The notes under the pieces were generated by a model, which was not told the DNA's origin, did not search any database, and worked only from the letters and a program-made list of their open reading frames with translations. Shown here one piece after another: positions 318-1,185 of a DNA stretch of 64,000 nucleotides. A program made the position numbers and the translations under genes. Every line of letters begins with the position of its first letter. Positions within the stretch are counted from its first letter, which is position 1. Origin of the DNA: Escherichia phage vB_EcoM_VR7; sequence record NC_014792.1. The stretch is one strand, 5' to 3'.

Positions 318-357
318 GACTTTACTTCTGATTTAACTTGGGTTATAATGCGCGTAT

Positions 358-369
358 GATATAAATACG
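358..369 (+). promoter_or_regulatory. T4-type late promoter (TATAAATA) upstream of the HNH gene
   Basis: Exact TATAAATA ~18 nt before the GTG start. Confidence 0.6.
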
Positions 370-384
370 CGCAAGGATTTACAA

Positions 385-990
385 GTGATTATTTCTAAAT
401 TTGTTGAAGTTCAAATACGAAATCATGCAAAGTGGTGGAGCGAATACTTAGGTAAACCTCTAACATACCATGATGTGATTTCTGTTCCAGTTGAACAAAT
501 GCCAGATAATAGTAATAAAAAGATTGAGTGTTCCTGTGATGAATGTGGGATACATTTTGAGCGAGGGATTCAGTTGCTTCGTCGCGTTGATAAACATTTA
601 TGTAAGGCATGTTCAAGAAAAGATATTGGACAAAAGAATGTTATTGCACAAGGCGGTGTGCCAAGACCATGGCAACGTGGTGAAAAACATCATAGCTGGA
701 AAGGCAATAAGCGTGAATTCTATTTGTACGCTCAACGTGTTCATGCATTGACAAGAGCAAAACATCTAAAGAATATTTGGTCAACATGGGAAAATGCAGA
801 TAAGATAGGAAAATGTGGGGAAGAAGGTGCATACCAACTTGACCATAAAGTTTCTATTGCGTATGGATTTTATAATCATATACCAGAGACTGTTATCGCT
901 TCGCTCAACAATTTAGAAATAGTCACTTGGGAATCTAATAGGTCCAAAGGAAAATCAAATAGTATTGACTTATGGGATATATTATCCTGA
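385..990 (+). CDS. HNH-family homing endonuclease (free-standing), N-terminal Cys4 zinc-finger-like motif
   Basis: C-terminal HNH-like motif (QLDHKVSIAYGF...NNLEIVTWESNRSKGKS); N-terminal CxxC...CxxC; GTG start with AAGGA SD ~7 nt upstream; sits between genes 18 and 19 where T4 has no gene. Confidence 0.6.
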   Translation: MIISKFVEVQIRNHAKWWSEYLGKPLTYHDVISVPVEQMPDNSNKKIECSCDECGIHFERGIQLLRRVDKHLCKACSRKDIGQKNVIAQGGVPRPWQRGEKHHSWKGNKREFYLYAQRVHALTRAKHLKNIWSTWENADKIGKCGEEGAYQLDHKVSIAYGFYNHIPETVIASLNNLEIVTWESNRSKGKSNSIDLWDILS

Positions 991-1034
991 CAGTAAATGT
1001 AATTAAGCAGTAAACCGTAGAACCATTATACAAT

Positions 1035-1046
1035 GCTATAAATAAA
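1035..1046 (+). promoter_or_regulatory. T4-type late promoter (TATAAATA) inside the loop of an inverted repeat
   Basis: Exact TATAAATA between the arms ccgtagaacc / ggttctacgg. Confidence 0.55.
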
Positions 1047-1123
1047 AGCATATCATCGGTTCTACGGACTCCTCAGAGCTTCCCCAGCGACCTAAATACA
1101 TTTATTGATGAATCATATTACCT

Positions 1124-1135
1124 AGTATAAATACA
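1124..1135 (+). promoter_or_regulatory. Late promoter for gene 19
   Basis: Exact TATAAATA ~50 nt upstream of the gene 19 ATG. Confidence 0.7.
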
Positions 1136-1185
1136 TGCATCAGGGACGCGTTCGCGCGACCTGTGTCTATAAAGAGGATTCCTTA

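Follow-up and report, generated by a model that had tools for sequence, protein, structure and literature searches.

An optional ORF19.1-family gene at the tail sheath-tube junction of phage vB_EcoM_VR7, its predicted HNH-type nuclease and a candidate long-range lock on its start codon

An optional gene between the tail sheath and tail tube genes

Escherichia phage vB_EcoM_VR7 carries, between the genes for its tail sheath (gp18) and tail tube (gp19), a 201-amino-acid (aa) open reading frame (ORF) that is the subject of this analysis. The window that was analyzed comprises 64,000 nucleotides (nt) of sequence record NC_014792.1, the first 1.8 kb of which match the T4-like coliphages of Gaprivervirus, with 97.7% identity to TH57 and approximately 95% identity to DK-13 and RZ over that whole stretch. 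The 3' end of gp18 (positions 1-317, with its TAA stop codon at 315-317) is followed by the ORF (385-990), by gp19 (1186-1677, with its ATG at 1186) and by the portal gene gp20 (from 1735), and all features described here lie on the plus strand. The matching places are annotated as tail sheath and tail tube in DK-13, VR25 and RZ. The ORF begins with a GTG codon and is preceded by a Shine-Dalgarno (SD) sequence, AAGGA, at 373-377. A sequence-only reading of the window had attributed to this gene a length of 201 aa, a GTG start, a TATAAATA motif of its own and an N-terminal Cys4 motif, and all of these are present (the cysteines as C51-x2-C54 and C73-x2-C76).

Protein homologs were found by tblastn in 238 phage records. 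One of them, with which the family first went on record, lies in the T6 GenBank entry 'ORF19.1 gene and g19 gene' and shares 59% aa identity over 200 aa with the window protein; a note in the same entry already proposes the GTG start. The protein also matches phrog_5104 over residues 1-200 (E 6e-77), and this full-length homology, combined with the position between sheath and tube genes, places it in the ORF19.1 family (T6 ORF19.1 / phrog_5104). The gene is labelled 'gp19.1' in DK-13, RZ, EnA02 and Ci1. The cassette itself is ordinary, being one more free-standing endonuclease-like gene that is already in GenBank as ORF19.1 or gp19.1. A search of the literature found no paper on T-even ORF19.1, the name 'ORF19.1' returning only Candida genes, and no published function for either the window ORF or T6 ORF19.1.

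Five filled alleles and the empty-site alleles of four phages (VR25, MN01, SP18 and P479) were aligned, which delimits the cassette proper to approximately 659 bp (318-976) that are present in the window and not in the empty-site relatives. In Gaprivervirus, the 18-19 junction is empty in about 25 records, which have a spacer of about 200 bp and no gene, and within the collection it is filled by this gene type only in TH57, DK-13, RZ (two records), DCP80 and the window. With empty-site alleles present among gene-less relatives and far outnumbering the filled ones, the earlier proposal of an optional, inserted cassette is borne out. In VR26, the spacer is filled by a different, distantly related family member of 227 aa with an ATG start. 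In Tequatrovirus, a T6-type gene occurs in 70 of 674 records, others hold an RB3 type, the N-terminal half of which differs, and the majority have, like RB14, an empty site. The sequence-only reading had placed the gene where T4 has none, which is correct for T4-type phages such as RB14 and does not extend to T6 and some 70 other Tequatrovirus records, where a homolog occupies the same place. In both genera, the extra DNA starts directly after the gp18 stop codon and ends approximately at the stop codon of the ORF itself (in Tequatrovirus, T6 and SHBML-50-1 versus RB14). Such presence/absence polymorphism at a single intergenic locus among close relatives, with intact flanking genes, is the pattern expected of a free-standing homing endonuclease gene, and positions 318-976 of the window are almost certainly an optional ORF19.1-family cassette.

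Some of the records used in these comparisons have peculiarities of their own. The DCP80 record (L004, PQ671644.1; 140,978 bp) has a stretch of N within gp19, after which the sequence is unrelated, and its assembly is incomplete or misjoined just 3' of the cassette; the DCP80 cassette type is independently backed by protein cluster P0007. The VR26 member (L003:1816-2708) replaces the stem of the hairpin that is native to the spacer and abuts gp19, and a copy of the loop promoter sequence stays upstream of it. X20 (L013), Eco005 (L111) and Bp7 (L012) hold in the same spacer a member like that of VR26, of approximately 227 aa, with an ATG start and no long-range helix of the kind described below.

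The position of the gene is fixed. In every homolog locus inspected, it lies directly 3' of the sheath gene, and a tail tube gene comes next wherever one is so annotated. The inspected loci were those of T6, RB3, S16, Roth19, Bp7, X20, UP19, Karamvirus EnA02, Citrobacter phage Ci1, Acinetobacter phages, Shewanella phage Thanatos-2, Pectobacterium phage POP12, metagenomic contigs and Sinorhizobium phage phiM7, which keeps the same gene position although it falls outside Straboviridae. The constancy of this position, beside sheath, tube and terminase genes in very distant phages including phiM7, would suit a gene that is not selfish, that is, an old accessory nuclease of the structural or packaging module that passes down vertically with repeated losses. 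In other phages, HNH proteins act as helpers of terminases, and the best structural matches of the protein, Gme HNH and GVE2 HNH, belong to the small phage-type HNH class linked with terminases. The distribution of the gene among close relatives points the other way. Phages whose flanks are 92-98% identical may or may not carry the gene, it is missing from most close relatives in the collection, the same spacer holds three family lineages within one genus, and N- and C-terminal halves have recombined between lineages (DCP80; T6 versus RB3). The 3' end of gp18 is, moreover, mosaic up to its stop codon and varies independently of whether the cassette is present: here the window is similar to VR26 and DCP80, and TH57, DK-13 and RZ are similar to empty phages. 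This mosaic among carriers indicates that the stop codon served as a breakpoint when the cassette passed from one background to another, and we consider a vertically inherited accessory nuclease to be an unlikely explanation.

The right flank of the cassette behaves differently from the left one. A patch of approximately 40 bp (1068-1108), immediately 3' of the native hairpin, has one version in 5/5 filled alleles and a quite different version in 4/4 empty alleles, so that in Gaprivervirus the right patch is linked to the cassette and the left flank is not; Tequatrovirus has no patch linked in this way. The patch may represent donor flank carried along by co-conversion or, alternatively, a target altered in carriers and hence possibly immune; on the empty allele, the cut would possibly be located in the 'GGGCTCCTGTGGTTGATTCTGGGAAGCCATTATCTTGAG' patch or at 'CAATAATTATCATCGC'. 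On balance, spread of the cassette by homing is the more probable account of its distribution.

A predicted zinc module joined to an HNH-type nuclease domain

The Cys4 module (C51-x2-C54 / C73-x2-C76) is encoded at 535-612; in 24 and in 78 homologs, C51, C54 and C73 never vary, and conservation of C76 is at least 90%. The module resembles the DUF4379 treble-clef module, and a search of solved structures with one of the sequence profiles (A2) matched through it the kinetoplastid mitoribosomal protein mS66 (residues approximately 23-82, window 451-630; E 2.6e-6). Family members also match, via their N-terminal 86 residues, a PHROG that carries the annotation 'homing endonuclease', an indication that different nuclease families may share this module for DNA binding. 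A match of another profile (A4) to leucine-rich-repeat proteins was judged spurious, since it ran through a 'P..IG.L.NLQ' string.

The putative HNH motif comprises D153-H154 (841-846), N176 (910-912) and N185 (937-939). In 78 diverse homologs, N176 is invariant and Y150, Q151, L152, D153, H154, L177, W182, N185 and K188 are at least 90% conserved, and D153-H154 is invariant in a 31-sequence domain alignment. AlphaFold models reached a predicted local distance difference test score (pLDDT) of 85 for the whole protein and, for the C-terminal domain, a pLDDT of 92 and a predicted template modeling score (pTM) of 0.80. In the model, D153-H154 lies at the end of strand 150-154, N176-L177 opens the next strand (177-181) and N185 is located on helix 182-187. 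Model and conservation thus agree on a catalytic-type His preceded by Asp at the end of the first strand, an Asn at the second strand and a candidate metal-ligand Asn on the following helix, in what is modelled as a beta-beta-alpha-metal layout, and the C-terminal model resembles HNH nucleases most closely.

Sequence-based searches gave a more divided picture. A Pfam scan of the protein returned 0 hits and NCBIfam nothing relevant; curated HNH models were not matched, HNH_4 reaching E 0.078 in 1 of 24 homologs and none scoring in 10 distant relatives. The other Pfam matches were to DUF4379, in the zinc module, and to DUF7487 in fused relatives. PHROGs annotated as HNH endonuclease or endonuclease VII were matched by family members with E values of 1e-5 to 9e-9. 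In hhalign comparisons, the motif fell in register with the HNH motif of T4 MobC (MobC residues 15-54), N185 aligning with the last MobC motif His, at a probability of 28%, and no relationship was found to T4 MobB or endonuclease VII. No HNH structure was matched in a sequence search of solved structures with the single protein and profiles A1, A2 and A4, and a Foldseek search against the Protein Data Bank was not significant, Cas9 HNH domains ranking at the top. The earlier designation as an HNH protein is hence backed by weak PHROG matches together with the motif and the modelled fold, and it has no counterpart among curated Pfam or NCBIfam models. From model and alignments, the C-terminal domain is very probably an HNH-type nuclease, and the protein as a whole is predicted to combine a zinc-dependent module for DNA binding with a divergent HNH nuclease of the H-N-N type. 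When 1.84 billion cluster representatives were searched with a profile, 4200 relatives emerged at E <= 0.001, which makes this a large family lacking a Pfam model for its nuclease domain. Longer relatives of 316-451 aa (P0102, P0107, P0161, P0164 and P0156) have the nuclease domain fused to Pfam DUF7487.

A predicted promoter and stem-loop at the 5' end of the cassette

Three bases past the gp18 stop codon lies a predicted sigma-70-type (phage early) promoter, TTTACT-17-TATAAT (321-349), which is the best promoter-like site of the region (10/12) and had gone unmentioned in the sequence-only reading. It is followed, just 3' of the -10 box, by a local stem-loop at 349-373 (TGCGCGTAT / ATACGCGCA; 9 bp with a 7-nt loop, -14.1 kcal/mol, z -4.0), and then by the SD and the GTG codon. 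An equivalent promoter and stem-loop precede the homologs in UP19, P0009, L014, P0011, P0015 and Roth19 (loci L007, L103, L014, L094, L102 and L010), and the local stem covaries among cassettes (GCGCGTAT, GCACGTAT, CGCACGTA and TGCACATA). Other lineages (T6, RB3, S16, P0017, P0006, P0012 and P0004) carry a GC-rich tetraloop hairpin in place of the promoter and stem-loop. The T6 ORF19.1 gene shares with the window gene its full-length homology, approximate size, location between genes 18 and 19, GTG start and long-range pairing, and differs from it in the upstream module, which is a GC-rich tetraloop hairpin without a sigma-70 promoter, as well as in host genus.

A sigma-70-like promoter and a stable stem-loop, placed after an upstream stop codon and before the SD and start codon of an optional gene, are the components of the promoter-early stem-loop (PeSL) modules described in the hyperplastic regions of RB49 and phi1 (Arbiol et al. 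2010, PMC2839356). The parts come in the same order, and one PeSL subclass has its stem-loop just 3' of the -10 box (PMC2839356). On the strength of its sequence, the cassette 5' end, with predicted promoter, stem-loop and SD, can be described as a PeSL-like module. Unlike the PeSLs, however, it lies within the conserved block of late structural genes, an AT-rich leader is nearly lacking and its loop contains a late-promoter motif.

That motif, the first TATAAATA (360-367), sits partly in the loop and partly in the 3' arm of this stem-loop and is the only cassette-borne copy. It is present in the window, TH57, DK-13 and RZ, is mutated in DCP80 and is absent from the homologous stem-loops of UP19, P0009 and L014, which makes it a local, lineage-specific addition and not a feature of the family. 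Late expression driven from it, as had been suggested for the gene, would therefore be a local feature at best, the motif being lost or mutated in these four relatives.

A predicted long-range helix over the Shine-Dalgarno sequence and start codon

A repeat search revealed that positions 376-401 and 910-935 are 88% complementary over 26 nt. The first segment runs from the end of the SD through the spacer and the GTG to codons I-I-S-K-F, and the second spans codons N-L-E-I-V-T-W-E, including that of motif residue N176. The predicted helix extends over a 5' arm at 375-405 (SD end, spacer, GTG start and codons 2-7) and a 3' arm at 907-936 (codons for N-N-L-E-I-V-T-W-E-S), which are approximately 520 nt apart; this pairing, which probably governs expression of the gene, was also absent from the sequence-only reading. 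The duplex energy is -32.0 kcal/mol, as compared with -16.7 +/- 2.4 for 200 shuffled start regions, none of which reach it (0/200), and it is the strongest pairing of a start region with its own ORF among 75 window ORFs (mean -18.8 +/- 4.4). The helix is part of both the minimum free energy and the centroid structures of the 645-nt transcript fold. It is kept in most of the approximately 20 ORFs examined from the GTG-start clade, at -22 to -36 kcal/mol in T6, RB3, UP19, PSD9, S16, Roth19, DCP80, EnA02, POP12, Thanatos-2 and several metagenomic members. A scan of IMG/VR yielded 73 loci, which were of no use for covariation because almost all are distant relatives without the helix.

Two lines of evidence indicate that the complementarity is selected. 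First, the arms covary. In a 16-sequence alignment, 82.6% of cells are paired, versus at most 44% with a slid partner, and six pairs have changes on both sides; the covariation score of 0.134, versus 0.087, was matched by 1 of 500 shuffles, although the sequences are related and such shuffle statistics are therefore not probabilities. G-U pairs are tolerated in the helix. Compensation is seen at codon 3, where ATT to ATC is accompanied by GAA to GAG (S16, Roth19, P0013 and P0015), at position -1, where A to T is accompanied by ACT to ACA (P0006 and P0017), and in DCP80, where TTTCT to TAGAT is accompanied by AGAAA to ATCTA, a three-base change that alters amino acids on both sides (IISK to IIDK and NLEI to NLSI). 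Second, silent change is suppressed in the 3' arm. Among 18 ORFs, synonymous diversity is 0 at 6 of the 8 3'-arm codons AAT-TTA-...-ATA-ATC-...-TGG-GAA (of which TGG, the single Trp codon, cannot vary), as compared with approximately 0.3-0.7 at most codons of the C-terminal domain, including those of the catalytic and invariant YQLDHK segment, and the only silent variants of the 3' arm are the compensated ones. The GTG start itself pairs with the CAC of Ile/Val-Thr codons (ATCAC/GTCAC), and this pair is broken in the one ATG-start member of the clade; the pairing may be the reason why the clade has kept GTG.

A second, independent solution is found in a sister subclade (P0019, P0020, P0022 and Citrobacter Ci1), in which the start codon is ATG, another serine codon is used and the pairing just described has been lost. 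Its start region, TTCAGGAACAATATGATTAT, pairs instead with the YGFDNHIVPE codons approximately 505 nt downstream over 20-22 near-perfect bp (L098:464-513 with approximately 994-1038; L099, L100 and L108 likewise), at -37 to -39 kcal/mol versus approximately -20 for shuffles. That the same SD and start segment has two different partners argues that selection acts on the sequestration of the start region itself.

Covariation and synonymous constraint identify a selected complementarity and not the molecule or the purpose, and the inverted repeat might therefore act in DNA, through recombination, a cruciform or protein binding, or in RNA stability and 3'-end protection, rather than in translation. 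The separation of the arms, at approximately 510 nt, is also long for co-transcriptional folding. We regard such roles as improbable, given that two unrelated solutions with different 3' partners both put the SD and start codon in the 5' arm, that the tolerated G-U pairs fit RNA rather than DNA, and that local structures sequestering the ribosome-binding site are an established means of regulating T4 homing endonucleases (PMC2988022). From its pairing pattern, the helix is more probably a translational lock, which makes it a modestly novel variant of ribosome-binding-site sequestration.

The downstream hairpin and late-promoter motifs are native to the spacer

The TATAAATA motif occurs at 360-367, 1037-1044 and 1126-1133 in this region and is enriched in the window, with 19 copies versus 4.8 +/- 2.2 expected. 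The second copy lies in the 33-nt loop of an inverted repeat (1015-1024 / 1058-1067) with a 10-nt, 100% complementary stem, as the sequence-only reading had described, and the third lies 53 nt 5' of the gp19 ATG. Folded as RNA, the hairpin (1015-1067) reaches -19.2 kcal/mol (z -6.5). Three TATAAATA boxes and an inverted repeat thus exist and adjoin an optional gene, and from this arrangement the hairpin and the repeated motifs had been interpreted as scars or duplications left by a mobile insertion. The empty alleles refute such an origin. The CCGTAGAACC...GGTTCTACGG hairpin, its loop TATAAATA and the TATAAATAC before gene 19 are present in 4/4 empty-site phages (VR25, MN01, SP18 and P479), where the hairpin differs by no more than a 2-nt loop indel and a few substitutions, and the empty 18-19 spacer of T4-type phages likewise contains two units of a hairpin plus a TATAAATA. 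The hairpin, which lies outside the insertion, and the second and third TATAAATA, the third being the gene 19 late-promoter motif in filled and empty alleles alike, are therefore native gene 18/19 punctuation and not insertion scars.

Searched across the window, stable hairpins next to TATAAATA boxes showed no separation from random positions in the measure used (mean -11.9 +/- 2.6), and the hairpin upstream of gp19 (1134-1190) was not significant (z -1.3). The gp19-gp20 spacer (1679-1713) has a TATAAATA (1679-1686) beside a GC-rich tetraloop hairpin (ATGAGGCTTCGGCCTCAT). In some relatives, an extra seg-like gene (GIY-YIG/NUMOD3) is located between gp19 and gp20 (L012:3769-4350, L094:3768-4343 and L101:1615-2211), and the portal gene is annotated as two pieces in Bp7 and Ptacy1496; the gp19-gp20 genes were rejected as HNH comparators for being seg-like (GIY-YIG/NUMOD3). 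Endonuclease genes appear to have a hotspot in the sheath-tube-portal block.

Discussion

The reading that we favor, and hold to be probable as a whole, is that of a homing cassette for an HNH-type nuclease that has a PeSL-like 5' end and a self-limiting long-range start lock. In this reading, a free-standing ORF19.1-family cassette would sit directly after the sheath stop codon and encode a two-domain protein, with an N-terminal Cys4 zinc module that is probably DNA-binding and a C-terminal HNH-type (D-H...N...N) nuclease. The nuclease would most likely cut or nick the cassette-less sheath-tube junction of co-infecting relatives, the cassette being copied in at repair. On the mRNA, the helix would close once the 3' part had been transcribed, so that ribosomes could load only before the 3' arm was made or while another ribosome was unwinding it. 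Translation would in this way be limited to nascent or ribosome-carrying messages, which together with the GTG start would yield a small, self-limiting dose of nuclease, and a potentially harmful enzyme would be held low on every transcript, including abundant late gene 18-19 read-through RNAs.

Among known systems, T4 MobA-E, for which I-HmuI is the structural paradigm, resemble ORF19.1 in being free-standing, intergenic in T-even-like genomes and equipped with an HNH-type motif, and MobA also has a GUG start (PMC2988022). The order of domains is reversed, however, as the HNH domain is N-terminal in Mob proteins and C-terminal in ORF19.1; there is no significant similarity outside the motif (MobC 28%, MobB none), and the last motif residue is Asn rather than His. 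The protein does not group with the T4 Mob family in a comparison that covered MobC and MobB.

The closest regulatory parallels within T4-type phages are the hairpins that sequester the ribosome-binding sites of I-TevI, I-TevII, I-TevIII, segB and Aeh1 mobE, which silence these genes on early or read-through transcripts, a late promoter inside such structures giving rise to an open mRNA (PMC2988022; PMC3014915). In the T4 homing genes and in T4 genes e, soc and 49, as predicted here for the window gene, a stable RNA helix hides the SD and/or the start codon, the nuclease genes among them being part of long polycistronic transcripts. The inhibitory arm of the T4 hairpins is local and upstream, whereas that of the window gene lies approximately 520 nt downstream in its own coding sequence. 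The window gene hence conforms to I-TevI-type control in the predicted enclosure of its SD and start codon in an RNA helix, with covariation and synonymous constraint, and departs from it in offering no late transcript devoid of the inhibitory arm. Since this arm (907-936) is located 3' of every candidate promoter (321-349 and 360-367), any full-length transcript can close. Long-distance sequestration of start regions that locks translation occurs in the 5'-3' fold-back inhibition of hok mRNA and in the MS2 maturation-gene and Min Jou interactions. Such locks are used for toxic or dose-sensitive proteins, the translation of which depends on a nascent or unfolded state or on passing ribosomes. 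The hok and MS2 systems are the closest analogues, in other genes and organisms; in the window gene, the partner is formed by the codons of its own catalytic motif, and no antisense RNA or processing step is known.

Several observations weigh against this interpretation. The constant position of the family could reflect old vertical inheritance with repeated loss, no cassette-linked flank polymorphism was found in Tequatrovirus, and the target site of the putative nuclease could not be identified. The ATG-start clade (VR26, X20, Bp7, phiM7 and Eco005), the GTG-start P0005 and more distant metagenomic relatives lack the helix, which is therefore not needed for the function of the protein; the pairing is not significant in Acinetobacter phages, and uncompensated variants occur in P0011 and L014. 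Both arms are coding, which inflates their conservation, and the relatedness of the sequences limits the shuffle statistics as stated above.

For annotators, a homing cassette with a start lock carries the warning that the N-terminal and motif codons of the gene are under RNA-level constraint. At the scale of the family, we would venture, with somewhat less than even confidence, that ORF19.1 proteins form a very large, site-specific mobile nuclease lineage of the sheath-tube junction of contractile-tailed phages, and that in its enterobacterial branches a self-locking mRNA has arisen on at least two occasions, restricting translation to nascent or ribosome-loaded messages and holding the GTG in place through ATCAC/GTCAC pairing. 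The long-range start lock would be an example, easy to test, of translational control over a long distance within one gene of a DNA phage; it would extend the local-hairpin rule of T4 homing endonucleases and account for the odd GTG start. The family keeps one insertion point from coliphages to a Sinorhizobium phage, with many natural filled, empty and alternative alleles, and this fixed site and wealth of alleles offer a clean system in which to study the way free-standing endonuclease genes locate a site and keep it.

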